64,000 nucleotides of DNA from a virus. Its lineage: Duplodnaviria > Caudoviricetes. Both the position numbers and the translations under genes were made by a program. The stretch is from IMG/VR virus record IMGVR_UViG_3300027805_000006; one strand, written 5' to 3'. Of the stretch, positions 3,342-24,609 are shown piece after piece. How positions within the stretch are numbered: position 1 is the stretch's first letter; every line of letters starts with the position of its first letter. The notes beneath the pieces are model-generated. The model did no database searches, had not been told where the DNA came from, and saw nothing but the letters and a program-made list of their open reading frames with translations.

Positions 3342-5270
3342 ATGCTGATAGATGAAAGCAACCAGAAAAAGGCGGTAGGCACGGTATCGCCTACCTCTGA
3401 ATTAAATGACCCACACGTTCAGCGACTTATAAAATATCTTGCTACCAGCATGAAGAAAACGGTGTCAGATATTGAGGACCACCTCAATGACAAGGTAAAT
3501 CAAATGCAGGACCTTGAGAAGAAGGCGCCTATTCTCTATCACTCAATGGTCAAAAATGCAATTGAAGCAGAACTTAATAAGTTATTTGAGGAGGCTCCTA
3601 AGCCCACTAAGGCGCCCGAGTTTGACCCAATTACCTTTTCTGCTCTCGTGCGCAGAGTGAAGGCTGAGAACCCATCTATCTTCCCACTCAGAAACTTCGT
3701 CGACAGAAAGCCAATCGCTTCTCCACGAATTGTTTTGGTTCCATCTAAGGACCCAGCCGATAAGCACTTCAATGATATAGCAACTGCCGCTGCAACCCCA
3801 TCGGGTGAATTCATTTTCTGTGTTCCATTTATGCAGCAACTTTTGAACTTTGCACACATCAAGGGCGTGGTGCCAAAGAGCAAGAAGTACAAGAACAATG
3901 GTGGAGACTTTGACCCAGAGTGGAGCGTTGTAGAGTTCCTAATCCTTCACGAATTTTTCCACTATACACATGCCGACTTTCACTATCAAAAAATTCTAAA
4001 GGCTGACCCAACTATCATCAACTGGGTAGGCGACTTTAGATCAAATTACGATCTCATAAAGGCGGGTCACGAGCCTATCCCAATGGGTCTGTACAATGAC
4101 CTCATCAACTACGACAGACAAAAGACATACAAGGAAATGTATGACCTAGTTAAGTCAGAGTTTGAGAAACTTTCTCCTAAGGACAAGAAGCGTGTTCAAC
4201 AGGCGATGGATGAACTTGGTGACCAGCACCAAGAAGGAGATGGGCAAGGTAGTTCTGGTAGCCAAGAGGGTGAAGGAAAACAAAGTAAGAAAGGCAAAGG
4301 CAGTAGTGAAGAAGAAGGAGAGGGAGAAGGAGAGGGAGAAGGAGAGGGAGAAGGAGAGGGAGAGGGAGAGGGAGAAGGAGAAGATAAAGGCGCTGGTGGA
4401 AAAGAAGTTCCTTCAGAGGAGGAACTGGAAGAACACTCAAAGCGCGTGAGTGAAAAATCAAAGTCTCGCCAAGACGGTGCAGAATCAAAACCGCAAGGAG
4501 ACTCTGGAAAGCAGTCATCAAGTGGGCGTGGTGGTAGAGGCGCTGGCAGCCCAACATCTCCTACAGCAGTTGATTATGCATCTATTAGACCCCGCTACGA
4601 CTGGAAAACTCTTCTAGCACGTCTGGTTAAAGGCGCAGATTCGGCAGAAATAACCTATCAAAAAGTCCATCGTCGAAACATAACAAGCATTCACGTTGCA
4701 ACTCAAACGGGTGCGGGTGTAATTAGACCTGGTGAAAAAGAAGTTCCATCGCACCTTATTAAACTTTGTATTGTAGTTGATAGTTCAGGCTCAATGTCAA
4801 ATAGTATTTCTACTGTATTATCAAACGTTCAAAAACTTCTTACCGATGGAGCATCAGGTATAGCAAGAACTTTTGCTTTTATTGAATTCTCATCAACGCA
4901 TAAGATGTATTCTTGCACAATGACAGGAAAAACAGGAACTGCTCGCGAAATACAGAAGGCTGCTGATATGAAGAATGTCGGTGGTGGTGCAGCGCCAGAA
5001 ACAATTTCAGCAATTCTAGGAAGACATCAAGGCGGTGCAACTAATTTTTCAGCAGACCTTGTATCCCAACTATCAGATTTTGCAAATCAAAACTACAATA
5101 TTCTTATTCTAACAGACACCGATATTGTTGGCGCTGGAAATAAAGAAGCATTTCTTGAACTTTACGGTAAGTATCATTCAAAGGTTTATTTAATTCTTGA
5201 TAGTAAGCAATCTTTTACTGAAGTTGCCCGCTCGCTCAAGTCCGCATCTGGCAACATTAGCCATCTGTAA
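3342..5270 (+). CDS. HExxH metallopeptidase-like plus VWA domain protein
   Basis: HEFFH motif, acidic Gly/Glu linker, MIDAS DSSGSMS; ATG at 3342 follows the ATPase stop. Confidence 0.8.
   Translation: MLIDESNQKKAVGTVSPTSELNDPHVQRLIKYLATSMKKTVSDIEDHLNDKVNQMQDLEKKAPILYHSMVKNAIEAELNKLFEEAPKPTKAPEFDPITFSALVRRVKAENPSIFPLRNFVDRKPIASPRIVLVPSKDPADKHFNDIATAAATPSGEFIFCVPFMQQLLNFAHIKGVVPKSKKYKNNGGDFDPEWSVVEFLILHEFFHYTHADFHYQKILKADPTIINWVGDFRSNYDLIKAGHEPIPMGLYNDLINYDRQKTYKEMYDLVKSEFEKLSPKDKKRVQQAMDELGDQHQEGDGQGSSGSQEGEGKQSKKGKGSSEEEGEGEGEGEGEGEGEGEGEGEGEDKGAGGKEVPSEEELEEHSKRVSEKSKSRQDGAESKPQGDSGKQSSSGRGGRGAGSPTSPTAVDYASIRPRYDWKTLLARLVKGADSAEITYQKVHRRNITSIHVATQTGAGVIRPGEKEVPSHLIKLCIVVDSSGSMSNSISTVLSNVQKLLTDGASGIARTFAFIEFSSTHKMYSCTMTGKTGTAREIQKAADMKNVGGGAAPETISAILGRHQGGATNFSADLVSQLSDFANQNYNILILTDTDIVGAGNKEAFLELYGKYHSKVYLILDSKQSFTEVARSLKSASGNISHL
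4308..4384 (+). repeat. purine-only (GAAGGAGAGGGA)n tract encoding (EG)n linker
   Basis: 77 consecutive A/G bases. Confidence 0.9.
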
Positions 5271-12721: not shown

Positions 12722-12958
12722 TCATTCTTCAACTCCGAAATGTTCTCTTATAATCTCTGCACCAGAAATACCGTAGTCATTAACACGCAGGTTTTTAACT
12801 TGTTCAGCACATTTCCTGATCAACAACTCGGCGAACTTTTGGTTATACAGTTGAAACCACGCTTGGTTAAATGTATGGCGATCGGCTATACCCTCCGAAG
12901 CAATATCGTTGATAGGTTGAAATGCCTCTAGAGCAAGTTCTTTAATTCGTTCGTTCAT
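12722..12958 (-). CDS. MNER/FGVEE family mini-protein
   Basis: MNERIKELA...KFAELLIRKC...EHFGVEE. Confidence 0.75.
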   Translation of the reverse strand: MNERIKELALEAFQPINDIASEGIADRHTFNQAWFQLYNQKFAELLIRKCAEQVKNLRVNDYGISGAEIIREHFGVEE

Positions 12959-13197
12959 TTGCATTCTTCTTCATAAATTCTTGTCAGGTTTTTGAATACG
13001 TCCATAGCAGAATCGTTAGTCAAAACGTGAGCAGCCACCACGGTAATGATATCTTTGTAAATCAATCCGGCGAATCGTTGGGCACTGGCTTCACCTTGCC
13101 AATATACGGTAGGAGGATTGCCATCAAGTGCAGGATCACCATCGTAGTGGCGAGTTCCGTGTGCTTGGCGATATAGTTCTTTCAATCGTTCGTTCAT
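12955..13197 (-). CDS. MNER family mini-protein
   Basis: MNERLKELY...QRFAGLI; N-half shared with 15474..15719. Confidence 0.75.
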   Translation of the reverse strand: MNERLKELYRQAHGTRHYDGDPALDGNPPTVYWQGEASAQRFAGLIYKDIITVVAAHVLTNDSAMDVFKNLTRIYEEECK

Positions 13198-13454
13198 ACT
13201 AAGTTATCCTTTAACCACCCGATAACGGTCCATTGTTTTACAACAAAAGTTCCATCACCGAATACCGGATTAGCAAAATCGTTCAGAATTTCAAATGGAT
13301 TTTCCGGATCATCTAACCTAACACCATGCTGTTTACAGAAACCAATTAATTCATCTCTATCATAAAATATCTTGCTGGGACCATGGACACCAGGCATTTC
13401 AAAGTTGAATGATTTCCTCCATAATCCTATGTCTCTGGGATAAAAGGTAATCAT
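13194..13454 (-). CDS. hypothetical protein
   Basis: ATGA-coupled ORF. Confidence 0.6.
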   Translation of the reverse strand: MITFYPRDIGLWRKSFNFEMPGVHGPSKIFYDRDELIGFCKQHGVRLDDPENPFEILNDFANPVFGDGTFVVKQWTVIGWLKDNLV

Positions 13455-13681
13455 TCTTCAACTCCGAAATGTTCTTTAATCTTTGAACCAATCACCAACC
13501 CAGGACCTGACATTTTCGGTAGGTCATATGTAGAGGCAACATCGACACAATCCTTGATGATCAACTCTGCGAACTTGTCCATAAAGTTAACCTGTGTTTC
13601 CCAAGAATTGTTTTGCCCGCTTGGATAGGCGGCGGAGGCAGTAGCAGCCTTGTCCCAAAGTTCTTTAATTCGTTCGTTCAT
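13451..13681 (-). CDS. MNER/FGVEE family mini-protein
   Basis: MNERIKELW...KFAELIIKDC...EHFGVEE. Confidence 0.75.
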   Translation of the reverse strand: MNERIKELWDKAATASAAYPSGQNNSWETQVNFMDKFAELIIKDCVDVASTYDLPKMSGPGLVIGSKIKEHFGVEE

Positions 13682-13866
13682 TCTACCACCTCGAATGTAA
13701 TTTTGACCCTAGAACCCACTGGCAATTTGTCGCTGAACCAAAAGTAATCTTCGGGCAAATTGTTTTTAGAGTGATCAAACAATGCTTCAAGACGATTCAG
13801 GATTGGCAAGTTCCTTGCCGTTTCCTCATCATCGAACAAGGTCATTTCAAATTCTGCTTTCATCAT
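13678..13866 (-). CDS. hypothetical protein
   Basis: ATGA-coupled ORF. Confidence 0.55.
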   Translation of the reverse strand: MMKAEFEMTLFDDEETARNLPILNRLEALFDHSKNNLPEDYFWFSDKLPVGSRVKITFEVVE

Positions 13867-14018
13867 TCACTCCCTACCGTCTTCCCAAGTTCGATGGTAA
13901 CTTCTTGGCACTTGCCGTAATTGATGAAACTGCGCCGAACTTCATGCGCTTCTTCCAGTGTAGCGCAGGGCAAACGAGCAGTCTCGTCGTCCTGCAGGAT
14001 AACTACGGTGTAAGTCAT
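13863..14018 (-). CDS. 51-aa hypothetical protein (below track cutoff)
   Basis: Own translation MTYTVVILQDDE...; fills the gap with overlap coupling. Confidence 0.5.
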   Translation of the reverse strand: MTYTVVILQDDETARLPCATLEEAHEVRRSFINYGKCQEVTIELGKTVGSE

Positions 14019-14215
14019 CACCGATCTCCAATAATGTCCACTGACTTGACCAGTTGATCTCGGGAATCAACATATTCGCATTCTTCCTTGGAAACTGATC
14101 GAACAGCAATTCCCAAATCCAATTGCTTTTTGATAAATGCCGAGGCATCAGAGTAGTTGCGGAATGCTCGTTGTTGGTAGGGAACCGCACCATAGTTAAC
14201 TGTATATTGCTTCAT
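14018..14215 (-). CDS. hypothetical protein
   Basis: ATGA-coupled to an FGVEE gene. Confidence 0.6.
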   Translation of the reverse strand: MKQYTVNYGAVPYQQRAFRNYSDASAFIKKQLDLGIAVRSVSKEECEYVDSRDQLVKSVDIIGDR

Positions 14216-14457
14216 TCTTCAACTCCGAAAATTCTACGGATCTTGCCGCTGATTGCACTAGCGGTATCATCGCAGCCTTGCTCGTATGGCTCCATCTCCC
14301 CGTATTCAGCAGGACTGGTGCTATGATGTTCGGTCATAGCCAAAATCGCACATTCCTTCGCAATCAACTCGGCGAACTTTAACTTGTCTTCATTAGTCCA
14401 ATGAACTCCAACCTTTTCATTGAGGTTGTAGATCATTTGTTGAATTCGTTCGTTCAC
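14212..14457 (-). CDS. MNER/FGVEE family mini-protein
   Basis: GTG start; KFAELIAKEC...IFGVEE. Confidence 0.75.
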   Translation of the reverse strand: MNERIQQMIYNLNEKVGVHWTNEDKLKFAELIAKECAILAMTEHHSTSPAEYGEMEPYEQGCDDTASAISGKIRRIFGVEE

Positions 14458-14466
14458 AGCAGCTCC

Positions 14467-14727
14467 TTACATCGGGCGGAGGAGCGAGCCAGACACGTTC
14501 CAGTTGCCGTCAAGACCGCAGTTCACCGAGACCATCTTGATCTTGACCTTAGTGACAGTACCCGTAACGTCCTTGCCGAATCGCGAGCAGAAGAACTTGA
14601 CCTTCTGGCCGGCTTGGAACGATTGAGCTGCTTGCACGCTGCGAACCTTCATGATCTTGGCGATCTGAGCGTTCAGGCTGCGGAGTTCGGTAGAGGACAT
14701 TGCGTTGAGGGTTTTCATGTCGATCAT
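14467..14727 (-). CDS. small basic early protein (KOW/SH3-like C-terminus)
   Basis: Directly behind a promoter; AAGGA RBS; FQAGQKVKF...GTVTKV. Confidence 0.65.
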   Translation of the reverse strand: MIDMKTLNAMSSTELRSLNAQIAKIMKVRSVQAAQSFQAGQKVKFFCSRFGKDVTGTVTKVKIKMVSVNCGLDGNWNVSGSLLRPM

Positions 14728-14756
14728 TTTGTTTCCTTGCTTGATTTGATAGAACA

Positions 14757-14786
14757 ATTATATCAAGAAGTCAAATTGTTGTACAC
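14757..14786 (-). promoter_or_regulatory. early promoter GTGTAC-N18-TATAAT
   Basis: Part of a block duplicated at 14983-15066. Confidence 0.7.
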
Positions 14787-14805
14787 CAGTAGTTGACTAA
14801 AACAG

Positions 14806-14976
14806 TCACCTATACGAGCTGCTGTATTCCACAATAAAGCAAGAGGGAAAGATTGTGTAGAACATATCAGCCGCGTCAAAAAGATCCTTAGCAAAGATCG
14901 TGTAGTCGAACTTCACGACAGACTCAGGAACCATAGGATCGACCAACTCGCCGCCAACAAACTTGTACTCATTCAT
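14806..14976 (-). CDS. 56-aa early protein (below track cutoff)
   Basis: Own translation MNEYKFVGGELVD...; AAGGA RBS; own promoter. Confidence 0.6.
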   Translation of the reverse strand: MNEYKFVGGELVDPMVPESVVKFDYTIFAKDLFDAADMFYTIFPSCFIVEYSSSYR

Positions 14977-15007
14977 TTCGTGTTCCTTTGCTTGATTTGT
15001 TAGAACT

Positions 15008-15037
15008 ATTCTATCAAGAAAGTCAATTGTTGTACAC
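15008..15037 (-). promoter_or_regulatory. early promoter GTGTAC-N18-TAGAAT
   Basis: Paralogous to 14757-14786. Confidence 0.65.
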
Positions 15038-15070
15038 CGCGCAGAACAATAGTTGACTAAAACAGTACAC

Positions 15071-15241
15071 TTAGCCTAAGTTGTTGATTCTAAACGCTTT
15101 TTTCAGAATCGACGCATCCTGCAGAGCGGTGGACAAACGGTCCATGGTAGCGTATTCCAAACCATTACCTACATAAACAGCCGGCTTACCCATTTGCTTT
15201 ACAGCAAGACTTTGAATTTCATGCCACGGACAAACTTTCAT
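15071..15241 (-). CDS. 56-aa hypothetical protein (below track cutoff)
   Basis: MKVCPWHEIQ...; ATGA-coupled to an FGVEE gene. Confidence 0.55.
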   Translation of the reverse strand: MKVCPWHEIQSLAVKQMGKPAVYVGNGLEYATMDRLSTALQDASILKKAFRINNLG

Positions 15242-15477
15242 TCTTCAACTCCGAAATGTTCTTTCAAATCTGACACACAATGCATCCTGCCTGTATTGTA
15301 ATCGCTATTACCTACTCTGCTATTACAAACTTGAATACATTCCCTGACAATCAACTCGGCGTACTTTTCCATTTGTTCAGAACTGACCACATAGTCTCCT
15401 TCGTTCCAATCACTGGGTAATCCAAGAGGTTTCCACCAATCAGCCTGTTCAGCAAGTTCTCTAATTCGTTCGTTCAT
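15238..15477 (-). CDS. MNER/FGVEE family mini-protein
   Basis: 3' 130 bp identical to 18036-18165. Confidence 0.8.
   Translation of the reverse strand: MNERIRELAEQADWWKPLGLPSDWNEGDYVVSSEQMEKYAELIVRECIQVCNSRVGNSDYNTGRMHCVSDLKEHFGVEE
15242..15371. repeat. 130-bp exact direct repeat (second copy 18036-18165)
   Basis: Base-by-base comparison. Confidence 0.9.
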
Positions 15478-15719
15478 TCTTCAACTCCGAAATATTTCTT
15501 AATACGAAGGGCACATTCCATCTCTACAGTATCCCGAGGATCTGCTTTTTCCATGACACAAGCATGGACACATTCTTCAATCAACAGCTTGGCGAATCTT
15601 TGGGCACTGACCTCATCTTGCCAATATACGGTAGGAGGATTGCCATCAAGTGCAGGATCACCATCGTAGTGGCGAATGCTGTGGGATTGACGGTATAGTT
15701 CTTGAATTCGTTCGTTCAT
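15474..15719 (-). CDS. MNER/FGVEE family mini-protein
   Basis: True start MNERIQELY at 15719; the track extension overlaps another ORF. Confidence 0.75.
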   Translation of the reverse strand: MNERIQELYRQSHSIRHYDGDPALDGNPPTVYWQDEVSAQRFAKLLIEECVHACVMEKADPRDTVEMECALRIKKYFGVEE

Positions 15720-15895
15720 AAGAGCAACGATCCTTTCTTTTCGAGACTGACTTGATGTTCTTCCATAGTACGATTGACACATAAACCACCGTCGTACAGA
15801 AGTGGTTGCCCAATCCAGCCCAACCATTCACAAGAATTTGGAGTGAATTTGCGACCGGTTGTGTTCCAGGCTTGCTTGAATTCTTCGTTCATCAT
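15716..15895 (-). CDS. 59-aa hypothetical protein (below track cutoff)
   Basis: MMNEEFKQAW...; ATGA overlaps at both ends. Confidence 0.55.
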   Translation of the reverse strand: MMNEEFKQAWNTTGRKFTPNSCEWLGWIGQPLLYDGGLCVNRTMEEHQVSLEKKGSLLL

Positions 15896-16065
15896 TCAAC
15901 TCCGAAATGTTCAAGAATGCTACTTGCCTCTGACCTTCGGGAAACTTGATCGGCACATTCCCTGACAATCAACTCAGCGAACTTCTCAAGTTTAGTAGGA
16001 ACTCCGTTAGGATTATGTACTAACAAGCCAGCTTCATTGGCAAGTTCTCTAATTCGTTCGTTCAT
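15892..16065 (-). CDS. MNER/FGVE family mini-protein, 57 aa (not in track)
   Basis: MNERIRELANEAG...EKFAELIVREC...EHFGVE. Confidence 0.8.
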   Translation of the reverse strand: MNERIRELANEAGLLVHNPNGVPTKLEKFAELIVRECADQVSRRSEASSILEHFGVE

Positions 16066-16430
16066 TCTTTAACCCCATCAGTGAACATTTGTTCTTCTAG
16101 TTGTGCTAAAAGTGTTCTAACTCTTTGCGTGTCTTCATCATATAGAGCGCTGCGCATTTCGATGATTAGTGGTCTAAACTCGCCAAACACTTCCTCAACC
16201 ATCGCTCGCTTAACTGAAAAAATCATTTCATGATATGCATCTGCGACCAACCCCTCTTCTAGCCAGCAGCTTGTCTCTAATTTAACGCCTATTTTATATT
16301 TTTTTGCTAGTCGGAGATGATCTGCTTCTGAAACAGTTCTGGATACATCAAGATAATTTAGTTTCAGATTGCGCGCCGCCTTAACATCACCAGTTAAAGT
16401 CGCGTTAATTACTTTTGCTAATTTACTCAT
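16062..16430 (-). CDS. hypothetical protein
   Basis: ORF ending GVKE, coupled to an MNER gene. Confidence 0.65.
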   Translation of the reverse strand: MSKLAKVINATLTGDVKAARNLKLNYLDVSRTVSEADHLRLAKKYKIGVKLETSCWLEEGLVADAYHEMIFSVKRAMVEEVFGEFRPLIIEMRSALYDEDTQRVRTLLAQLEEQMFTDGVKE

Positions 16431-16572
16431 GAAATTTTCACCTTTTTAGAGTTCTGAATTATACAAATAGACACAGATTTTTTTGCAGTATTAGAATGCT
16501 TACAGCACCAATCTGCATACTTAGTGCCTACTGCACCTACATTGTGGTGCAAACACCCTTTACAGTGTTTAT

Positions 16573-17421
16573 TCATTTAATGACCTCAATATTAGTAAAG
16601 CCGCGACACTTCTTGCCGTGATACTTGTACGAATCAATAGTAGAGCCGTATCGCTTGAAGGCTTCTAGAGGATCTTCTCCGTATGCTATTTCAACAGAGT
16701 GACCCATAGTTCCGCCTTTCCACGATCCTTTATTATAACCTGTTTCTTTTGAGAATTCAAGGTCTAATGTGTACTTGATCAAGGGCTTCCTGATATAGCC
16801 TAGCCACTTGCACCATCCAATGCCATGACGCCACATTCGTTTTGAGATGTAGCATGTTGCAATAATCTCTTCGCCGTCATAGTCATTGAAACGGAACCTG
16901 ATCTTGTTTACGGCTTGTCTGATTTTACGTTGTTCTTCCCAGTCAGTCCTGCCATTCTTGTCGGCAAGGATAGCATATGATGACCACTCGGGTGTGAAGA
17001 ATTCTTCGTGTTGAAATGTCATGTTCTTCCAAGGGATCCAGACAACCTTCGTGTGGTCAGAGTTCTTCTTATCTCTTGAAGACCAAGATCCGGGTTGAAT
17101 ACCGTAATTGATGTGAACAGAGTCTTCTGTAATAGAGATTCCATACTGGCGTTGGGTGTAGTCCCAATAACCACCTGATGGACTCTTTGACCACGATTCC
17201 TTTGACGTGTCTATCCACTTCTTGCGAGGCTTGAACAACTCGGGAATCCGAAACCACCAAGAGTGCCCAAAGATTGCAACGTGGAGATTACAGTAATTTG
17301 TTCTGGAATGACCGCTTTCATAGTACTCATGGGGATTGGATATAGTCAGTGCGAATGACCAAAAGTCATTCTTTGCATACTCTTTCAACTTAAACAACAT
17401 AAAAGTTCCAGTCAATCTCAA
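16573..17421 (-). CDS. Trp/aromatic-rich hypothetical protein
   Basis: 282-aa ORF; start uncertain. Confidence 0.7.
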   Translation of the reverse strand: MRLTGTFMLFKLKEYAKNDFWSFALTISNPHEYYESGHSRTNYCNLHVAIFGHSWWFRIPELFKPRKKWIDTSKESWSKSPSGGYWDYTQRQYGISITEDSVHINYGIQPGSWSSRDKKNSDHTKVVWIPWKNMTFQHEEFFTPEWSSYAILADKNGRTDWEEQRKIRQAVNKIRFRFNDYDGEEIIATCYISKRMWRHGIGWCKWLGYIRKPLIKYTLDLEFSKETGYNKGSWKGGTMGHSVEIAYGEDPLEAFKRYGSTIDSYKYHGKKCRGFTNIEVIK

Positions 17422-17686
17422 TGAAATTATTAGCAGATTCTATAATTTTTAATTGCTGCTCAATCTCAAATATGTCAGACCTTTCTTGCCATGTCCCAAC
17501 CTTATACCCGTGAATGTTTCGAAGTCCTCGCAGTCTTTCAGCTGTACTAATATAGACAATTTCCTGACTATAAACTGTAAGACCTGCGTCAATCATCTTC
17601 TGCGCAAGAGTTGCTCTAAACTGGTTAAACTGTTCATTATTTCCAGCAATCACATAAATCTTTTCTGAGTTAAACATCCTTGTCAT
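17390..17686 (-). CDS. hypothetical protein
   Basis: ORF in gene series. Confidence 0.55.
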   Translation of the reverse strand: MTRMFNSEKIYVIAGNNEQFNQFRATLAQKMIDAGLTVYSQEIVYISTAERLRGLRNIHGYKVGTWQERSDIFEIEQQLKIIESANNFIEIDWNFYVV

Positions 17687-17700
17687 CTCCCGTATCTAAT

Positions 17701-18036
17701 TTAGCAAGTCACTTTTGTGGGGCAATTATGCCGTGGGCAAACATATCCCATAACTTCTCCATTTGTCCCAATGCCGCATACTGAGCAACCTCTAGAATAT
17801 TGTGGGTGAAGAACAATATTCGGCTTGCCCTTGGGAAGCAGCATATTAATTGTGAGCATATATTCTTCTAGTCGCTGCTTAAGAAATTCAATTTCATCTC
17901 GGTACATTCTTCCTGCTTCATTATGACCACATTGATATACTCTTTCTAACAATGGCGCTAGTAAAGCTGCTCCGGGATACCCGCCATCCTCTAATCCCTT
18001 GATAGCTTGATCTACAATATCTTGCTTATGACTCAT
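17701..18036 (-). CDS. protein with C-terminal CxxC...CxxxxC module
   Basis: CSVCGIGTNGEVMGYVCPRHNCPTK; paralogue of 23479..23769. Confidence 0.65.
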   Translation of the reverse strand: MSHKQDIVDQAIKGLEDGGYPGAALLAPLLERVYQCGHNEAGRMYRDEIEFLKQRLEEYMLTINMLLPKGKPNIVLHPQYSRGCSVCGIGTNGEVMGYVCPRHNCPTKVTC

Positions 18037-18244
18037 CTTCAACTCCGAAATGTTCTTTCAAATCTGACACACAATGCATCCTGCCTGTATTGTAATCGCT
18101 ATTACCTACTCTGCTATTACAAACTTGAATACATTCCCTGACAATCAACTCGGCGTACTTTTCCAACACTAACTCCAAAAGGATACCTTCTTGTTCAAAG
18201 GCATGTTTGGCACCTTTAGCCAGTTCTTGTATTCGTTCGTTCAT
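18026..18244 (-). CDS. MNER/FGVE family mini-protein (chimera of two other members)
   Basis: 5' half identical to 18832..19071; 3' half identical to 15238..15477. Confidence 0.8.
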   Translation of the reverse strand: MNERIQELAKGAKHAFEQEGILLELVLEKYAELIVRECIQVCNSRVGNSDYNTGRMHCVSDLKEHFGVEDES

Positions 18245-18247
18245 TTT
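18141..18247. repeat. 107-bp exact direct repeat (second copy 18968-19074)
   Basis: Base-by-base comparison. Confidence 0.9.
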
Positions 18248-18423
18248 TCAACTCCAAAATGTTCTTTAATCATGTCACCAGTGCCAGCACAATTACCTGT
18301 TGCAATAATACATTCCCGCACGATCAATTCGGCAAACTCATCAGCAACATCTTGCCAGTTCATTGGTGTTTTTGTGTGCTTAACAACACACTGGGCCCAA
18401 AGTTCTCGGATAGGATCGTTCAT
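18241..18423 (-). CDS. MNER/FGVE family mini-protein
   Basis: MNDPIRELW...EFAELIVREC...EHFGVEK. Confidence 0.75.
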   Translation of the reverse strand: MNDPIRELWAQCVVKHTKTPMNWQDVADEFAELIVRECIIATGNCAGTGDMIKEHFGVEK

Positions 18424-18656
18424 TCTTCAACTCCGAAATGTCGTTTGATCTTATTTCCGACATATACCAATGCCTCGTTGAAGCCTTCATAATATTCGCT
18501 TTTGGTGTTGGTATATTGACTATTAACAGACAACTCAGCACATTCTTTCACAATTAGTTCGGCGAACTTTTCTAAATCTTGCTCAATACCAAATCGTACC
18601 ATTGATACCGCATCAAAACCAGCCTGTAGAGCAAGGTCTTTAATTCGTTCGTTCAT
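18420..18656 (-). CDS. MNER/FGVEE family mini-protein
   Basis: MNERIKDLA...KFAELIVKEC...RHFGVEE. Confidence 0.75.
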   Translation of the reverse strand: MNERIKDLALQAGFDAVSMVRFGIEQDLEKFAELIVKECAELSVNSQYTNTKSEYYEGFNEALVYVGNKIKRHFGVEE

Positions 18657-18835
18657 TCTTCATCTCCGAAATAACTATCAAAACATTTTTCGCACGTTCC
18701 GGAGATTGCTACTTCTGCATGTCCCTCTTTTGTGAAGATATTCACACCAAACTTGAACGGCTGCTTACAATCAATACACCTAGCGGTGTCCTTGTCAACC
18801 CATTCTCTACCTACTAGGCGTTGTTCAGTTGTCAT
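18653..18835 (-). CDS. small CxxC...CxxC zinc-ribbon-like protein ending FGDEE
   Basis: CIDC and CEKC; unrelated body but the same 3' junction sequence as the family. Confidence 0.65.
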   Translation of the reverse strand: MTTEQRLVGREWVDKDTARCIDCKQPFKFGVNIFTKEGHAEVAISGTCEKCFDSYFGDEE

Positions 18836-19071
18836 TGTTTAACTCCAAAATGTTTTTTAATCACTGTTGAACCTGTTAGTAATGCTTTGTTATATCCGTT
18901 GTCAAAATCTTCAACTGATTCAAATACAGGGACAGTAATACTTTCTAAAGTCAATGCACATTCTCTAACAATCAACTCGGCGTACTTTTCCAACACTAAC
19001 TCCAAAAGGATACCTTCTTGTTCAAAGGCATGTTTGGCACCTTTAGCCAGTTCTTGTATTCGTTCGTTCAT
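18832..19071 (-). CDS. MNER family mini-protein
   Basis: KYAELIVREC...KHFGVKQ. Confidence 0.8.
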   Translation of the reverse strand: MNERIQELAKGAKHAFEQEGILLELVLEKYAELIVRECALTLESITVPVFESVEDFDNGYNKALLTGSTVIKKHFGVKQ

Positions 19072-19241
19072 TTTCTATTCATCCATCCGATAATGAAAAA
19101 TATTGGCATCGCTGGCAACATAATAGGATAGTCATACCATTTGCTCTTTCGGAATTTATATCCCATAATATTCAGGAAAAACACAACTCCTGCGATAGTC
19201 CACAGAATGTAAATTGCTATACAAATCAGAAATGTCGTCAT
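19068..19241 (-). CDS. 57-aa membrane protein (below track cutoff)
   Basis: MTTFLICIAIYILWTIAGVVFFL...; ATGA overlaps at both ends. Confidence 0.6.
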   Translation of the reverse strand: MTTFLICIAIYILWTIAGVVFFLNIMGYKFRKSKWYDYPIMLPAMPIFFIIGWMNRK

Positions 19242-19468
19242 TCTTCAACTCCGAAATGTTTGCGGATGTTTTCAATGGACTTATCTACAGCCCAGACAAC
19301 ATCGTCGTTTTCACAATTGCTCACACCGATCATGGCAATTTGACTAACACATTCCCGAATCAACAACTCGGCAAACTTCTCTAATTCTAGTCTACTAAAA
19401 GTCCAAGAATCGATTACTGGATAATCTCTCAGTACCTCGAGTGCGATATCATATACGCGTTCATTCAT
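19238..19468 (-). CDS. MNER/FGVEE family mini-protein
   Basis: MNERVYDIA...KFAELLIREC...KHFGVEE. Confidence 0.75.
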   Translation of the reverse strand: MNERVYDIALEVLRDYPVIDSWTFSRLELEKFAELLIRECVSQIAMIGVSNCENDDVVWAVDKSIENIRKHFGVEE

Positions 19469-19483
19469 CTAGATGCTCCTCAA
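19464..19483. repeat. 20-bp exact repeat TTGAGGAGCATCTAGATGAA (minus strand), second copy 19880-19899
   Basis: RBS plus start of two unrelated genes. Confidence 0.8.
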
Positions 19484-19590
19484 TTAAAAACCGTCACCAG
19501 CACCAAAAGAAGTACAGACATAGGCACATAGAGAATGTAGCACATCCAGAATAAACCTTCAATTAATGCATCAAACATATCACGCATCAT
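19480..19590 (-). CDS. 36-aa hydrophobic peptide (below track cutoff)
   Basis: MMRDMFDALIEGLFWMCYILYVPMSVLLLVLVTVFN; AGGAG RBS. Confidence 0.5.
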   Translation of the reverse strand: MMRDMFDALIEGLFWMCYILYVPMSVLLLVLVTVFN

Positions 19591-19617
19591 GCGCTCCTAT
19601 TTTGTTATAACTATTGG

Positions 19618-19884
19618 TCAAGCAAAGTCTTTACGATTGTGACGCTCGCGAGCAGAACTAGCGAAATTGCTGATGTTGCCACACTTGTCTTCCCAACGAA
19701 GCAGACTACGAGCAGTCCAACCAATGTCTATCTTGCTTTCGCAGACAGCCTCTTGGTTCACAACACCATTGAGAAAGATACGCACATGATATCGACCGTT
19801 GATGCAGCGAACAGTAACTTCATGCTCGCACTCGCCTACGATGCAACGCTGGATTTGGATAAGTTGAGTATAGCGGTCTTTCAT
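19618..19884 (-). CDS. hypothetical protein
   Basis: ORF with GAGGAG RBS. Confidence 0.7.
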   Translation of the reverse strand: MKDRYTQLIQIQRCIVGECEHEVTVRCINGRYHVRIFLNGVVNQEAVCESKIDIGWTARSLLRWEDKCGNISNFASSARERHNRKDFA

Positions 19885-19920
19885 CTAGATGCTCCTCAAA
19901 TAGTACGTTCGTGTGCTGGG

Positions 19921-20043
19921 TTATTGAAACAAGTACAGTATTCCATAGAGCACCAGCAAGGGTCCATAGAGTGTAGCACACACAATGCCCAGTAGCAGAA
20001 GAAAGGAAGCAAAGAACTCAACAAACTCGCCAAGTTCGCTCAT
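19921..20043 (-). CDS. 40-aa hydrophobic peptide (below track cutoff)
   Basis: MSELGEFVEFFASFLLLLGIVCATLYGPLLVLYGILYLFQ; GAGGAG RBS. Confidence 0.55.
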   Translation of the reverse strand: MSELGEFVEFFASFLLLLGIVCATLYGPLLVLYGILYLFQ

Positions 20044-20053
20044 GCTATTCTCC

Positions 20054-20131
20054 TCACTTACCCAGGTAGTGAACAATTACGGTGGGACCCACTAGGCATA
20101 GCATTGCTACGATACCAATCAGAATATCCAT
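20054..20131 (-). CDS. 25-aa hydrophobic peptide (below track cutoff)
   Basis: MDILIGIVAMLCLVGPTVIVHYLGK; GAGG RBS. Confidence 0.45.
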   Translation of the reverse strand: MDILIGIVAMLCLVGPTVIVHYLGK

Positions 20132-20132
20132 G

Positions 20133-20330
20133 TTAACCCTCAATTCGTTGTTCAACCAGCTGCGCCATGTACAGAGTGTCCCGGTACCGAGCAACCCACG
20201 ACTCTGAACTCATCGCATTTTCAAAGCTTTTTATCGCTTCTTGCTTAGTGCGATAAGAACCGAGCAGGAAGGGACCCTGCTCGTCTCTGCCACCTACCAC
20301 ATAGCCATGATCCCAGTTCTTCATGTTCAA
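20133..20330 (-). CDS. hypothetical protein
   Basis: Coupled ORF. Confidence 0.6.
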   Translation of the reverse strand: MNMKNWDHGYVVGGRDEQGPFLLGSYRTKQEAIKSFENAMSSESWVARYRDTLYMAQLVEQRIEG

Positions 20331-20650
20331 GCCTCCACAGTCAGCACCGGAGCTGGATCAGTAATACGGCCTTCGTACTCCAGCTGGCTCTTCTCGTACC
20401 AGGTCAGGAAGTCGTCTGCCACAACCTTGTAGGAAACGATGTACTCGCGATACCCCTCGTTGTTGCACTCAATTTGGCCACGCACACGGTCCACGATCAC
20501 CTCGATCATGTCGCACTCGTCCACGTTCTTGACCACGTAGTCGCTGCCGCCCTTGGCCTTCCAGTAGGCATCAGCACCAGTACCCAGCGAACCATCTTCG
20601 CGCCAGGCGTAGTTTTCGAAACATTGAGTAGTGATCAGAAGTTTGGTCAT
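20327..20650 (-). CDS. conserved phage early protein
   Basis: MTKLLITTQCFENY...YWKAKGG; AAGGAGG RBS; behind an early promoter. Confidence 0.75.
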   Translation of the reverse strand: MTKLLITTQCFENYAWREDGSLGTGADAYWKAKGGSDYVVKNVDECDMIEVIVDRVRGQIECNNEGYREYIVSYKVVADDFLTWYEKSQLEYEGRITDPAPVLTVEA

Positions 20651-20693
20651 CGTTTCCTCCTTATCCCTAAGTGTTAATTTAAACAATGAGACT

Positions 20694-20722
20694 ATTATAC
20701 ATCAACCAATAATCTTGTACAC
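20694..20722 (-). promoter_or_regulatory. early promoter GTGTAC-N17-TATAAT
   Basis: Spacer AAGATTATTGGTTGATG nearly matches the 27764 promoter. Confidence 0.8.
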
Positions 20723-20740
20723 TACTATTTTGTAACAAGC

Positions 20741-20771
20741 AAAAACCTGTAACTAAAGTTACAGGTTTTTT
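20741..20771. terminator. 14-bp perfect inverted repeat (terminator and/or operator)
   Basis: AAAAACCTGTAACT-AA-AGTTACAGGTTTTT; overlaps a GTTAC box. Confidence 0.65.
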
Positions 20772-20796
20772 GAAACTATTTTACAGGTTACTAACT

Positions 20797-20982
20797 TTAA
20801 TCGTCAATCCATTCGTGCTTATATTTCTTCCAGCACTGAATAGCCTTTTTTAGATTATCCATCTGTTCTAGACGAATATGATCCATGATTCCCCATTCAT
20901 GATATGTGTTTGTCATCTTCCAAAGACGATCATGTCTCTCTTGTAGAGTTGCAATAACAACATCGTATTTTTCTTCAGTCAT
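20797..20982 (-). CDS. hypothetical protein
   Basis: Coupled ORF. Confidence 0.55.
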   Translation of the reverse strand: MTEEKYDVVIATLQERHDRLWKMTNTYHEWGIMDHIRLEQMDNLKKAIQCWKKYKHEWIDD

Positions 20983-21257
20983 TGTTTACACCTTGCGCGG
21001 ATAGCGGCTGCGCAGACGGAGATCTGCCATGCAGCACTGCGCAGACTGATTGTTTCATCCGTATCTGCGCCGTCACATGCCTGTTCATTTTTCATTGCTT
21101 TGGCATCGCACACCTTCGCACACGCCTCACGCTCGGCAGCGGCAACAAGTTCAGCAAAGCGCGCGAACACGGGGTAGAGATCGCGCTCTACCCACGCGAC
21201 GTGTTCAAACATGGCCCCAGCCTCCTGCGCCATATGCATGATGTCGTCTCTGGTCAT
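20979..21257 (-). CDS. distant MNER-like family member
   Basis: MTRDDIMHMAQEAG...RFAELVAAAEREAC shares the central FAEL..EC core. Confidence 0.65.
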   Translation of the reverse strand: MTRDDIMHMAQEAGAMFEHVAWVERDLYPVFARFAELVAAAEREACAKVCDAKAMKNEQACDGADTDETISLRSAAWQISVCAAAIRARCKQ

Positions 21258-21769
21258 GCTAACTCCTCATTTGGAAATTCTTTAGTTGGTCGAAACATAT
21301 ACTCCGACTTCTCAGGAATAACATATGGAAAAGTTACAGGAACTCTGGACTCATATGATGTGAAATGGGATTTAAACGGCTTACCGTCATTAATACTTGG
21401 AACTGATACCCATTCCCAGAACACTTTGCCATCGATATTGTATGCACCATTGTTATCTTTGAAGACACTGCCGCAACGCTTGTTCTGAAACAGAGGACCT
21501 CCATCAGTGCCATAGGATCTGCTAATATCAACCCACTCCTGGTCTTCACCAGTTAATGGTGTAACTGGCTTGAATCTTGCAAGCGTATCAAACAAATTAA
21601 GCGTATATGGCGCAGTAGTTCCAGAGTGCCCTTCATCACTGAATGTCTCTAGCAACTTTAGAACGTGATTGCAAATTTGTTCTTGCATTTCGTCGGAGAA
21701 CTTGCCGTTCTCATCCATCCAGCCAGCGGCCCTAAACTCATTCTTTGCGTAAAATTCGTAGTTGCTCAT
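21254..21769 (-). CDS. conserved phage hypothetical protein
   Basis: MSNYEFYAKNEF...FSDEGHSG...PLTG...QNKR; AGGG upstream of 21769. Confidence 0.7.
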   Translation of the reverse strand: MSNYEFYAKNEFRAAGWMDENGKFSDEMQEQICNHVLKLLETFSDEGHSGTTAPYTLNLFDTLARFKPVTPLTGEDQEWVDISRSYGTDGGPLFQNKRCGSVFKDNNGAYNIDGKVFWEWVSVPSINDGKPFKSHFTSYESRVPVTFPYVIPEKSEYMFRPTKEFPNEELA

Positions 21770-21838
21770 TCTAATCCCTCGTAAAACATTATGCGCCACA
21801 TTTCTTTTACAATTTTAATCAAAAATCAACCTGCGCAA

Positions 21839-22177
21839 TTAATATTTTAAATGTAACCAACCAATATCCTTTTCCATTGGAGTTATAGTAACTTCTTTCT
21901 TTGAAGACTCAATCAAATTTGATAGAACACCCATTCCATAGACTGAGCATCCATACGCATTTTTGCTACACCCGTATGTTGAGCCTGACGCTCCACGAAA
22001 GTAGAAGCAATTTTCATCTTCAGAGACTGAAACAATTCCACTGTTCATCTTCCAACTATCGCCTCCCGCAAACCCACCGACCCAAGTTGCAAAAACACGG
22101 TAGTGCTGTGGAAGCTCCTCTTTGATCGGTGTAATCTTTAAAACCATCCACCTGTCTGGCATATAATCTTTGCTCAT
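21839..22177 (-). CDS. conserved phage hypothetical protein
   Basis: PDRWMVLKI...GGDSWKMNSGI. Confidence 0.7.
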   Translation of the reverse strand: MSKDYMPDRWMVLKITPIKEELPQHYRVFATWVGGFAGGDSWKMNSGIVSVSEDENCFYFRGASGSTYGCSKNAYGCSVYGMGVLSNLIESSKKEVTITPMEKDIGWLHLKY

Positions 22178-22458
22178 GTACGTGCTCCAAATTGTTTTCT
22201 GATGATAGTGATCTGTTCATCAAGAATAGCATTTTTCTGATATAATGAAGTTTGCCCTGAATATGTTCCACCGCTGTACGGATCATCTTTCTTACTTGTG
22301 TCTAAAACATTTATGCATTCATTCACAATTGATGTTGCAAAATCTTCAAGTGTCAACAGGGATTGGCCATGTCCTGAGAAAGATACAAATTCTCCATGCA
22401 CGTCTTTTCCGAAGTAAAGCCCTGCTTGCTCTGCTAGACTTCTAATTCGCTGATTCAT
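22174..22458 (-). CDS. divergent MNER family member
   Basis: MNQRIRSLAEQAG...DFATSIVNEC...KQFG. Confidence 0.7.
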   Translation of the reverse strand: MNQRIRSLAEQAGLYFGKDVHGEFVSFSGHGQSLLTLEDFATSIVNECINVLDTSKKDDPYSGGTYSGQTSLYQKNAILDEQITIIRKQFGART

Positions 22459-22461
22459 TAT

Positions 22462-22818
22462 TTAATCCTCTAATTTTATAAATCGCTTAGTATTTGTTTT
22501 ACGAGTTCCGCTCATCCACGGTTGAATAGACATGTTGTTCAAATACATCTCCATTGTAGGAATGAAACCAAGATCCTGCTGAATATGATCCTCTGCAATG
22601 TCTCTAGGAGAATATTCTCTACCATCTGAATTTATGCGCGTACGACCAAAAACTTTTTCTACTAAAAAGCACCCAAATGCGGAGTGTAAAATAGCGCGGT
22701 GGCGGACATCAGCAACTGCTTGCTTCGTCGAATCGATAAAGTCGTCAATGTCGGCATAGTCATCTGGCTTTCCACCATACTTCTTAACATGAATCTTACT
22801 GTGTAGAAATGGCTTCAA
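22462..22818 (-). CDS. DUF6915-like protein
   Basis: KPFLHSK...KKYGG...Y..I.DF.D...HRAILHSAFG...AE.HI.QDLG.IPT (recalled family pattern). Confidence 0.65.
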   Translation of the reverse strand: MKPFLHSKIHVKKYGGKPDDYADIDDFIDSTKQAVADVRHRAILHSAFGCFLVEKVFGRTRINSDGREYSPRDIAEDHIQQDLGFIPTMEMYLNNMSIQPWMSGTRKTNTKRFIKLED

Positions 22819-23087
22819 GGAAGCCTCTTGACTATTGATACGACTTCACCGCTGTTGGCTTCATAACTCATGCACCCTCGCTCAAGACACGAATGGTCAA
22901 TCATGAATTTATTTTCAATCGATGTCGCGCTCATTGACGCTCGAAGATGTTCAATTTCTATAGCAGCCTCTTCAAGGAGGTCAGCAATTCGGTCAGGCTT
23001 ACCCTCCTGCACGCTCTTCCTCGATGGGATTTGGCGCCTAATCTCAGCACGCTTTCTTAGCCGATAAACAACATCATTCTCATCCAT
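22815..23087 (-). CDS. hypothetical protein
   Basis: LRKRAEIRRQI..RKSVQEG..DRIADLLEEAA. Confidence 0.65.
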   Translation of the reverse strand: MDENDVVYRLRKRAEIRRQIPSRKSVQEGKPDRIADLLEEAAIEIEHLRASMSATSIENKFMIDHSCLERGCMSYEANSGEVVSIVKRLP

Positions 23088-23088
23088 C

Positions 23089-23325
23089 TTATTCCTTTGA
23101 CTCCATTGCCCAATGCACTACCTTCCAATCATCTAGACAGTCCTCAAAGCAGTAAATTGCATCAACATGGGTCTGACCATACTTTTCACACATCTTGCTA
23201 TACCAGTAGGGCCAGTATTCTTTCCTCACATCTTCTTCAGACATTGTAACATATTCTGGGTCACCTGCATCATTTTTTGGTTGGACGAAGGTAAAGTATC
23301 TCATCACCATTCTCCCTCTGCGCAA
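23089..23325 (-). CDS. hypothetical protein
   Basis: ORF in gene series. Confidence 0.6.
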   Translation of the reverse strand: MRRGRMVMRYFTFVQPKNDAGDPEYVTMSEEDVRKEYWPYWYSKMCEKYGQTHVDAIYCFEDCLDDWKVVHWAMESKE

Positions 23326-23492
23326 GACATCAGGTACCTATAAACCGCCTCTGGATCTTTCTCAAATACTTCTTCTGGCGTGCAGCCAAAAAATTTATTA
23401 TGTCTATTCCACCAATCCACAGCAAGGTCAAGTCCTAGCATACCAACTAGAAGAGCGTGGCACCTCCTATGAAGATTATCAGAGGATAGCAT
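23304..23492 (-). CDS. hypothetical protein (antitoxin Xre/MbcA C-terminal-like)
   Basis: WWNRHNKFFG.TP...V..YL pattern. Confidence 0.45.
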   Translation of the reverse strand: MLSSDNLHRRCHALLVGMLGLDLAVDWWNRHNKFFGCTPEEVFEKDPEAVYRYLMSCAEGEW

Positions 23493-23769
23493 CTTTAACT
23501 ATTATCTTAGTTGGACAATCATCGCGTGGGCACACATAACCAATCACCTCACCATTTGCGCCAATACCACAGACCGAGCACCCCTTATTCGCCCCAGGGA
23601 CGTAAGGAGCACTTCGGTTTTCTCGTCCATTGTTCATTGCCTCAAGGTATCCACAATCATAGACGTTCGATAGCATCTGTGAAAATAAATCTGCAAAGTT
23701 TCTTGGCATACCTGCAGAGACAAGAGTGTCTACAGTATTTTCAATAATTTGTTGCTTATATGTTTTCAA
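23479..23769 (-). CDS. protein with C-terminal CxxC...CxxxxC module
   Basis: CSVCGIGANGEVIGYVCPRDDCPTK; paralogue of 17701..18036. Confidence 0.7.
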   Translation of the reverse strand: MKTYKQQIIENTVDTLVSAGMPRNFADLFSQMLSNVYDCGYLEAMNNGRENRSAPYVPGANKGCSVCGIGANGEVIGYVCPRDDCPTKIIVKDAIL

Positions 23770-23990
23770 GAGACATACTCCTTGACATTCTGCAATTTAA
23801 AATGAGATGCAATTTTATTTGAAACCGAAGTATCATGTGTATCGGTAATTTTTATACATTCCTGAATAATTAGCCGTGCAAACTTGTCGCGGTCAAATCG
23901 GTGATGCGTGCTAGGAAAACCACCGAAGCCAAAGTCACTCGGTTCTTCAACCCAGCATTTTGAGGAAATTTGATAAATTAAATCGCTCAT
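23766..23990 (-). CDS. divergent MNER family member
   Basis: DKFARLIIQEC...SHF. Confidence 0.65.
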   Translation of the reverse strand: MSDLIYQISSKCWVEEPSDFGFGGFPSTHHRFDRDKFARLIIQECIKITDTHDTSVSNKIASHFKLQNVKEYVS

Positions 23991-23993
23991 TTA

Positions 23994-24191
23994 TTACTCA
24001 CTTTTAAAATGGTCTTTTAGACGTTGGGAATACTCACTTGCAGGTACGCGCCGATCAACAAGGTCTTGAACAACTGCAGCACATTCTTTAACAGAAAGTG
24101 CAAACAGCCTATCGAATTTTTCTTCATGAAACCACACGTCATAGTCACCAAATTCAGCCTCATCTAAAATGCTCTTAAGTCTGTGATTCAT
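23994..24191 (-). CDS. divergent MNER family member
   Basis: MNHRLKSIL...VKECAAVV...KDHF. Confidence 0.65.
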   Translation of the reverse strand: MNHRLKSILDEAEFGDYDVWFHEEKFDRLFALSVKECAAVVQDLVDRRVPASEYSQRLKDHFKSE

Positions 24192-24394
24192 CGCTTAACT
24201 CCGAATTTTTCTGCCATATACCAGCCAACGCTAATATCCCGATCGTAATCGGGATATCCCTGCTCCTTCAACTCTGCAATTTTAGCACATTCCTGAACAA
24301 TCAACTCGGCGAACTTTTCTGGATTAAGGTAGGCAGGACCAACACCGTCTTCTTCCCAGCATTGATCAACTAGTTCTTTAATTCGTTCGTTCAT
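24188..24394 (-). CDS. MNER family mini-protein
   Basis: MNERIKELV...KFAELIVQEC...KFGVKR. Confidence 0.75.
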   Translation of the reverse strand: MNERIKELVDQCWEEDGVGPAYLNPEKFAELIVQECAKIAELKEQGYPDYDRDISVGWYMAEKFGVKR

Positions 24395-24609
24395 TCCGAA
24401 ACTCCGAAATGTTGTTCAATATAAGCACCAGCCATTAGTTGACCAGCATATAGTTCATTATTCGTACCGCGATTATAACATTGGTTCAAGCATTCTTTAA
24501 TAATCAACTCAGCAAACTTTTCCGCAAACGAAACAGGATGTCCAAAGTCTGGACTTACCGCAGTTACTTCCCAAGCCTGTTCGGCAAGTTCTTTAACTCT
24601 CTCATTCAT
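24391..24609 (-). CDS. MNER family mini-protein
   Basis: MNERVKELA...KFAELIIKEC...HFGVSE. Confidence 0.75.
   Translation of the reverse strand: MNERVKELAEQAWEVTAVSPDFGHPVSFAEKFAELIIKECLNQCYNRGTNNELYAGQLMAGAYIEQHFGVSE

Follow-up and report, generated by a model that had tools for sequence, protein, structure and literature searches.

The window, the whole stretch of 64,000 nucleotides analyzed here, lies within a 329,993-bp contig of an uncultured giant freshwater phage. This phage encodes T4-like type II topoisomerase subunits; the best cultured match of the topoisomerase II large subunit is the Ralstonia jumbo phage RsoM2USA, at 47.8% at the amino acid level. A megablast search of positions 15000-19500 against 50,697 deposited phage records gave 0 matches, that is, no near relative. 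The minus strand carries an array of mini-genes of one family ('MNERI'), whose members encode proteins of 57-94 aa, with unrelated small genes sitting between the paralogs. The protein frame of the family is MNERIxEL, a variable part, (E/D)KFAELIVxEC, a second variable part, and HFGVEE. At the gene level this corresponds to a start block, a variable N-module, a mid block, a variable C-module, and a tail block. The DNA of the start block is ATG-AAC-GAA-CGA-AT..., that of the mid block ..AAG-TTC-GCC-GAG-TTG-ATT-GT.., and that of the tail block ..TTC-GGA-GTT-GAA-GA, which doubles as the ribosome-binding site of the next gene. Most family genes are linked by ATGA stop/start overlaps, with GGAG placed within the GVEE codons. 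The array and its principal genes are:

12722..24609, minus strand: 'MNERI' mini-gene array with at least 15 clear paralogs (17 by HMM)
15238..15477, minus strand: gene A, 79 aa (a1 + a2), carrying the second exact copy of a2 (ORF, self-comparison)
16573..17421, minus strand: Acb3-like CBASS inhibitor gene, within the array (Pfam PF25187, E=6.8e-48)
18026..18244, minus strand: gene B, 72 aa (c1 + mid block + a2 + slot-specific tail ...FGVEDES) (ORF)
18832..19071, minus strand: gene C, 79 aa (c1 + c2), carrying the second exact copy of c1 (ORF, self-comparison)
21254..21769, minus strand: Tad3-like Thoeris inhibitor gene, within the array (Pfam PF25185, E=3.6e-35)

With Tad3-like and Acb3-like genes inside it, the array region has the look of an anti-defense island. 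Other small genes in the array include one at 22462-22818 (minus strand), which adjoins a family member and encodes a 118-aa protein with a full-length DUF6915 match (PF21866, 2.9e-39), and one at 18653-18835 (minus strand), which encodes a 60-aa Cys-rich, Zn-ribbon-like protein whose C-terminus reads ...FGDEE.

Gene B belongs to the 'MNERI' family (E=2.7e-30 against an HMM built from the window paralogs) and is composed of two tracts, each an exact copy of part of another family gene. The c1 tract comprises 3 nt upstream, the start block, the N-module, and the mid block; the a2 tract comprises the mid block and the C-half.

18036..18165, minus strand: a2 tract of B (C-half plus mid block), identical to 15242-15371 of A over 130 nt (100%)
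18141..18247, minus strand: c1 tract of B, identical to 18968-19074 of C over 107 nt (exact)
18141..18165, minus strand: mid block encoding EKYAELIV, the crossover point, 25 nt, same in A, B, and C
18026..18035, minus strand: slot-specific 3' end of B, 10 nt, common to the slot gene of a relative (L088) and not to A

The copies of the mid block lie at 15347-15371 in A and 18968-18992 in C, and the c1 repeat shared by B and C extends to 117 nt at 98%. The preliminary description of this DNA had reported the two tracts and their 25-nt overlap and had read B as a fusion whose N-half is that of 18832..19071 and whose C-half is that of 15238..15477; its coordinates and identities prove exact, and the join is confirmed without a mismatch.

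Such identity is exceptional within the family. Among the 105 pairs formed by the 15 clear window paralogs, the three longest exact runs are 130, 104 (+3 upstream), and 59 nt; the remaining pairs share at most 27 nt, and the median is 14 (n=105 pairs). When the window is taken together with 87 related viral contigs, an exact run of 40 nt or more occurs in 4 of 776 within-contig paralog pairs, three of which belong to the window; the median over these pairs is again 14 nt. Both tracts of B together show 0 differences over 237 nt, with the qualification that assemblers can pop bubbles and that "100%" between copies could mask a few real differences. About 8 differences would be expected if the copy dated to the split from L088 (3.4% divergence), which gives P ~3e-4 for a copy of that age. 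Since 0 differences stand against about 8 expected, the recent half-gene shuffling proposed in the preliminary description is supported.

The a2 module (18036-18140 and 15242-15346) encodes a Cys-x3-Cys ... His-Cys pattern (ECIQVC ... MHC) that the other C-modules do not have, and its protein sequence is more than 90% conserved across many phages in which the N-partners are unrelated. AlphaFold2 modeling of B from a 73-sequence alignment predicts three helices, at residues 3-19, 23-44, and 52-66, with a mean pLDDT of 76. The crossover block falls within predicted helix 2, and the Cys/His residues of a2 may form a small metal site between helices 2 and 3. The model has no PDB match at E<=0.001, and searches of the family against Pfam, PHROG, ESM Atlas, and BFVD return nothing named and no known anti-defense family. 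Because Acb3-like and Tad3-like genes lie in the array, a role of the family in host takeover or counter-defense is a reasonable guess from gene context.

An alignment of A, B, C, and the L088 gene places three junctions in B, at the start codon, in mid-gene, and in the tail, each within a block that is conserved across the family. B and C are identical over a stretch that opens 3 nt ahead of the ATG, takes in the start block and c1, and reaches the mid block. From the mid block through a2, up to ...GTTGAAGA in the tail block, B equals A. Past ...GTTGAAGA, B matches L088 and differs from A. The earlier reading of a join inside the shared 25-nt block therefore stands, but not that of a single crossover, as B has three junctions. 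The last 10 nt (18026..18035) overlap the start of the downstream 111-aa gene.

The origin of this odd tail is indicated by a relative. L088 is a 2197-bp ENA contig, 96.6% identical to 17331-18060, and its similarity to the window ends 25 nt into the tail block of B. Its gene at this slot is another member of the family, 77 aa long, which also ends in ...FGVEDES and also overlaps the downstream gene by 11 nt; since a different gene shares it, the tail of B is a property of the slot. In a second relative, a lake/freshwater metagenome contig at 92% over 16069-18057, the C-module between the tail and the mid block exceeds a2 by 51 nt. Three related phages thus have three different slot contents, with no outgroup consensus, and only the content of the window's slot has halves that exactly copy two other genes of the same genome. 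A family gene on L001/L002 was considered as an orthologue of the B slot and ruled out: it sits upstream of a Tad3 homologue. A viral-contig search with the 111-aa neighbor as query gave no match. Gene B shows what is expected of gene conversion or homologous exchange between paralogs, namely identity tracts that are outliers with abrupt ends, ends that lie in shared sequence, and flanks of its own that are kept.

Before such a structure is interpreted, it must be asked whether it exists as DNA, and the preliminary description had named misassembly as the point to exclude. A mosaic gene could be made by a wrong de Bruijn path at the conserved blocks or by collapsed repeats. The blocks of this family are very abundant in lake metagenomes, with hundreds of matching contigs, which invites chimeric paths; moreover, the region forms a graph cycle in another assembly. 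The same strain was found by exact-protein look-up in the ENA assembly ERZ27247435, a MEGAHIT assembly with contigs named k141, so that k exceeds the 117- and 130-nt repeats. Its contig L095 (38,254 bp) matches window 18276->14701 letter for letter in its first 3576 nt, covering 29 nt of the tail of g18241, c1, the block, a2, the 111-aa gene, the Acb3 gene, and gene A; it therefore contains both the c1|block|a2 junction and the two 130-nt copies. B, A, and the intervening DNA are reproduced at 100%. With k=141, a false join can arise neither at a 25-nt block nor at the 117- and 130-nt repeats, and the mosaic therefore exists as DNA. ERZ27247435 splits the region over three contigs, all of which the window contig spans, and the assembly is certainly independent of that of the window, even though it may stem from the window's own study and the samples are possibly not independent. 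In addition, the sequence flanking B is unique on either side, and the B slot of a relative is likewise occupied by a family gene. The concern about an assembly artifact is thus largely removed at the level of assembled sequence, and an artifact now seems very improbable. In two comparisons with public runs, the share of sampled words was at most 0.17 and at most 0.33, the latter for 17990-18300. Four lake/freshwater metagenomes yielded contigs of relatives only, none of which spans the region, a result that says nothing about the chimera.

The family to which B belongs is very large, viral only, and uncharacterized wherever it was searched. A profile search of 5.8 billion clustered proteins gave at least 7985 metagenomic relatives at E<=1e-3, none with a Pfam domain. 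The family itself has no Pfam match and no significant PHROG match; its ESM Atlas neighbors are all viral "hypothetical protein" clusters, and its BFVD matches are uncharacterized proteins of uncultured phages. A tblastn search of two family members against cultured-phage records gave no match, and a literature search found no publication on the family motifs.

The N- and C-modules of the family are assorted independently, as judged from a sample of 341 unique proteins drawn from the window, the 87 viral contigs, and the best database matches, in which the variable parts were clustered separately. These proteins fall into 207 N-clusters and 196 C-clusters, in 283 combinations. More than one partner is found for 49 N-clusters and 21 C-clusters, and there are six four-gamete cycles. 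An ungapped-segment scan of 4093 similar pairs, a sample enriched for a2, finds whole-gene similarity in 279; in most others the similarity is confined to one half, with the mid block as its inner limit. The a2 module is found with dozens of unrelated N-modules, and several N-modules of window paralogs are fused to a2 elsewhere. Likewise, c1 is paired with other C-modules and c2 with other N-modules (P0121, P0122, L092). On sequence grounds, this assortment is the general evolutionary mode of the family.

Some of these events can be seen at different ages. In L070, a 150-kb viral contig, the genes at 2881-3066 and 3541-3768 are identical over the 96 nt that lead from the ATG to the mid block, and their C-halves are unrelated; this pair represents, by the same reading of identity, an independent second recent half-gene exchange in another phage. 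In the window, 12955..13197 (minus strand) and 15474..15719 (minus strand) have a common N-module, 89% over 130 nt with 59 nt exact, and unrelated C-halves, which looks like an older exchange of the kind seen in B. The gene at 12955..13197 is without the family tail and terminates in ...RIYEEECK. Two large proteins among the matches to C, P0123 (4978 aa) and P0175 (723 aa), were set aside: they match the N-half of C in 9 and 5 stretches, respectively, and are without the family mid block by regex, so that the similarity is probably of the helical-repeat or coiled-coil type and not kinship. A diversity-generating retroelement does not fit either, as the changes are replacements of whole modules with ends located in the blocks, not scattered substitutions.

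The three blocks are conserved at the level of codons as well as residues. This was assessed on 155 representatives from 58 contigs, no two of which share an N- or C-cluster. The invariant residues of the blocks use a single codon almost exclusively, mostly one that is rare elsewhere in the same genes, with P values from 1e-6 to 1e-63. The frequencies in the block and in the background are:

Start block, Asn: AAC, 0.97 in block vs 0.34 background
Start block, Arg: CGA, 0.97 in block vs 0.22 background
Mid block, Lys: AAG, 0.91 in block vs 0.32 background
Mid block, Phe: TTC, 0.80 in block vs 0.34 background
Mid block, Ala: GCC, 0.89 in block vs 0.26 background
Mid block, Glu: GAG, 0.90 in block vs 0.24 background
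Mid block, Leu: TTG, 0.92 in block vs 0.31 background
Tail block, Gly: GGA, 0.99 in block vs 0.31 background
Tail block, Val: GTT, 0.96 in block vs 0.43 background

Fixation of the tail and start blocks can be explained by translation initiation and coupling, because ribosome binding and re-initiation at the next gene rely on the junction that these two blocks make up. The mid block alone is without an explanation by a translation signal. An Rfam scan of 12-25 kb gave no RNA family, the mid block included, and no known RNA element therefore accounts for the block conservation. Fixation of the mid block would be expected if exchanges repeatedly run through it, or if exchange is the reason for its retention.

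Other assemblies contain further arrangements of this region, one of which, a closed cycle (L093), is an additional recombinant between the repeats. The features concerned are:

18141..18967, minus strand: 827-bp repeat unit (c1 of B, g18241, g18420, Zn-ribbon gene, c2 of C), from L093
19058..19071, minus strand: start block of C, a strain breakpoint, from comparison with L096
18634..18981, minus strand: transferable unit (mid block, c2, Zn-ribbon gene, start block of the next family gene), 98.9% in L092

In the 968-bp contig L093 (ERZ27247435 k141_1883623), window 18699->18141 continues into 18967->18559 without a mismatch. The contig begins and ends with one and the same 141 nt (968 = 827 + 141) and therefore represents a closed cycle of 827 bp, which is exactly the distance between the two copies of c1. 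At its junction, g18241 is followed by c1, the block, and c2. This junction is absent from the window, and there must therefore be molecules in which c1 of B and c1 of C have recombined. The 827-bp cycle is thus read from its junction as a recombination product of B and C, either a circle or a tandem repeat. A second contig of ERZ27247435, L096 (152,026 bp), from an otherwise identical strain, matches window 22241->19058 with 0 mismatches in 3.18 kb and diverges completely right after the 14-nt start block of C. Beyond this breakpoint (L096:3171-4306) lie another family gene (80 aa) and then genes of 106, 59, and 46+ aa.

Exchange also reaches beyond the half gene. In the JGI contig L092, c2 and the Zn-ribbon gene (98.9%) are fused to the N-half of g18241 (93.6%); the join of this segment lies in the mid block and its other end in the start block of the next family gene. 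Three lake metagenomes have contigs that are about 99% identical over 18640-18981 only. In several phages, represented by L092 and contigs from lake metagenomes, the Zn-ribbon-like gene at 18653-18835 accompanies the c2 half-gene. All locatable breakpoints between near-identical genomes fall on one of the three blocks; the smallest unit exchanged is a half gene, and the largest includes neighboring genes as well. To judge from where the breakpoints fall, B exemplifies a shuffling that acts at the blocks throughout the family and transfers multi-gene cassettes too.

Gene B is most likely a real, recent recombinant that arose by homologous recombination or gene conversion at portable homology blocks. 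In the proposed mechanism, the three near-identical DNA blocks would act as short homology arms for phage homologous recombination, so that the segment between any two of them, be it a half gene, a whole gene, or a half gene along with neighboring genes, could be copied or swapped among paralogs and co-infecting phages. At the B slot, whatever lay between the start and tail blocks of the resident gene would have been replaced by an N-module as in C and a C-module as in A, with C and A of this genome or of a sister genome as templates. The most likely route is gene conversion in which the template switched, or a second exchange occurred, within the mid block; the 3' end proper to the slot, which overlaps the downstream gene, would have been retained. 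The resulting 107-117-nt direct repeat of B and C would keep recombining and so yield the 827-bp circle or tandem repeat. The enzymology (template-switch conversion, two events, or circle-mediated exchange), the role of B as recipient, and the maintenance of the blocks because of their service to recombination are all inferred. A simple unequal crossover between A and C is excluded, because the flanks of B are unique and are not those found upstream of C and downstream of A.

Whether B received its halves or gave them away bears directly on this account. B may instead be the older gene, having donated block and a2 to A and c1 and block to C, so that A and C would be the derived mosaics. The wording of the mid block lends this some weight. 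The Tyr form, rare compared with the usual KFAELIV, occurs in A, B, and C and in 9 of about 400 family genes including these, a count to which some contigs fetched by a pattern that included the Tyr variant contribute. Its presence in all three genes requires at least one further block exchange, or B as donor to A and/or C; two events from B would account for the 25-nt Tyr block in all three, and A and C otherwise share nothing. The Tyr block was also tried as a private marker of these genes and rejected, with six occurrences beyond the window, in other phages. In addition, c2 has a different N-partner in L092, so the c1 of C could be secondary. The slot and a distant gene point the other way. 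P0111, a metagenome protein of another phage, combines an a1-like half with a2 and is identical to A at 55 of 79 positions (10 of 27 in the variable N part); having the same gene size, it indicates that the architecture of A is not new. The B slot has other modules in both close relatives. The P0111 architecture and the lack of a2 at the slot in both relatives favor B as the recipient, to the extent that gene content can orient an exchange, although both points leave room for B-to-A homogenization of a half that was already of a2 type. On balance, a donor role for B is unlikely.

A separate question is whether the combination itself is as young as its sequence identity. The c1 + a2 gene could be old at the B slot, with only the identity made recent by concerted evolution with A and C. 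The wide distribution and strong conservation of a2, with its dozens of N-partners, make two a2 paralogs in one genome plausible, and conversion between homologous modules demands less than replacement of unrelated sequence; that both tracts cover whole modules is compatible with either reading. Against this, the two close relatives, at 96.6% and 92% in the flank, have non-a2 modules at the slot, and c1 + a2 is therefore no older than those splits. Among the matches listed, no c1 + a2 gene appears beside the window's own P0001 in the 5.8 billion clustered proteins, nor does one appear among the 1.84 billion representatives searched with C; a gene of c1 + c2 or c1 + a2 was likewise not found beyond this strain among those matches. 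An old c1 + a2 gene is accordingly a rather improbable source of the present structure, and formation of B by recent block-mediated exchange, with B as putative recipient, is the reading preferred here.

The value of the locus lies in the freshness of these products. Phage mosaicism is normally inferred from old, eroded junctions, and here the products have zero substitutions. Parents, mosaic, cyclic product, and alternative strain arrangements are all at hand at 99-100% identity, and the rules of exchange are therefore directly readable: exchange takes place at three short blocks, and the synonymous sites of these blocks are fixed in hundreds of genes that cannot otherwise be aligned. The architecture of the family appears built for in-frame recombination. 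More tentatively, the blocks may be portable recombination arms under selection, forming an evolved combinatorial system of in-frame "DNA shuffling" cassettes in freshwater phages that works partly via small circles such as the 827-bp cycle. If so, it would generate new two-module small proteins, probably host-targeting or anti-defense, and would also move neighboring accessory genes between genomes. If the blocks are kept for recombination, the family would offer a tractable model of the diversification of phage accessory proteins.

Several known systems shuffle variable segments between conserved sequences. In Neisseria pilE/pilS and Borrelia vlsE, variable cassettes with conserved flanks are copied into a resident gene, producing mosaics whose ends lie in the conserved parts. 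These systems of antigenic variation rely on a single expression site with silent donor copies, and they operate within one cell lineage. Unlike them, all copies in the present array look expressed, each with a predicted ribosome-binding site and translational coupling, and exchange also occurs between phage genomes.

In T-even phages, exchanges in the gp38 adhesins occur in conserved glycine-rich motifs that flank hypervariable segments, and the segments form a population-wide library of interchangeable parts reshuffled by efficient phage recombination (Trojet et al. 2011, PMC3157838). Recombination at the gp38 motifs also goes back to Tetart et al. 1996/1998, as cited in PMC3157838. The present family is like gp38 in having short conserved motifs between variable segments. 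It is unlike gp38 in showing no kinship of sequence or fold (no Pfam, PDB, or named BFVD match; three predicted helices), and its genes are of about 70 aa, predicted helical, and non-structural. There are at least 15 tandem paralogs per genome, and donors are therefore available in cis. The blocks also double as gene-to-gene junctions, and whole neighboring genes travel with a half gene.

The PeSL (promoter-early stem-loop) cassettes of T4-type phages mediate modular shuffling and mini-circles (Arbiol et al. 2010, PMC2839356; Comeau et al. 2014, PMC4122927), and exchange between nearby copies gives small circular DNAs (PMC2839356). As with PeSL, short conserved sequences are dispersed here through hyperplastic regions of small non-essential genes, and insertion, deletion, and replacement distinguish near-identical phages, with the strain breakpoints lying on the blocks. 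The closed 827-bp cycle between two repeat copies is either a free circle or a tandem repeat, and in the former case would be a counterpart of the PeSL circles. PeSLs are intergenic promoter-terminator elements; unlike them, the present blocks are coding sequence at the start, middle, and end of ORFs, and the genes mostly abut through ATGA and leave no intergenic space. As the blocks are in-frame coding sequence, exchange directly makes chimeric proteins. If they are kept for recombination, they would be a coding-sequence counterpart of the T4 PeSL system; what sets the family apart from both gp38 and PeSL is that the recombining elements are in-frame coding blocks of a multi-copy family of small genes.
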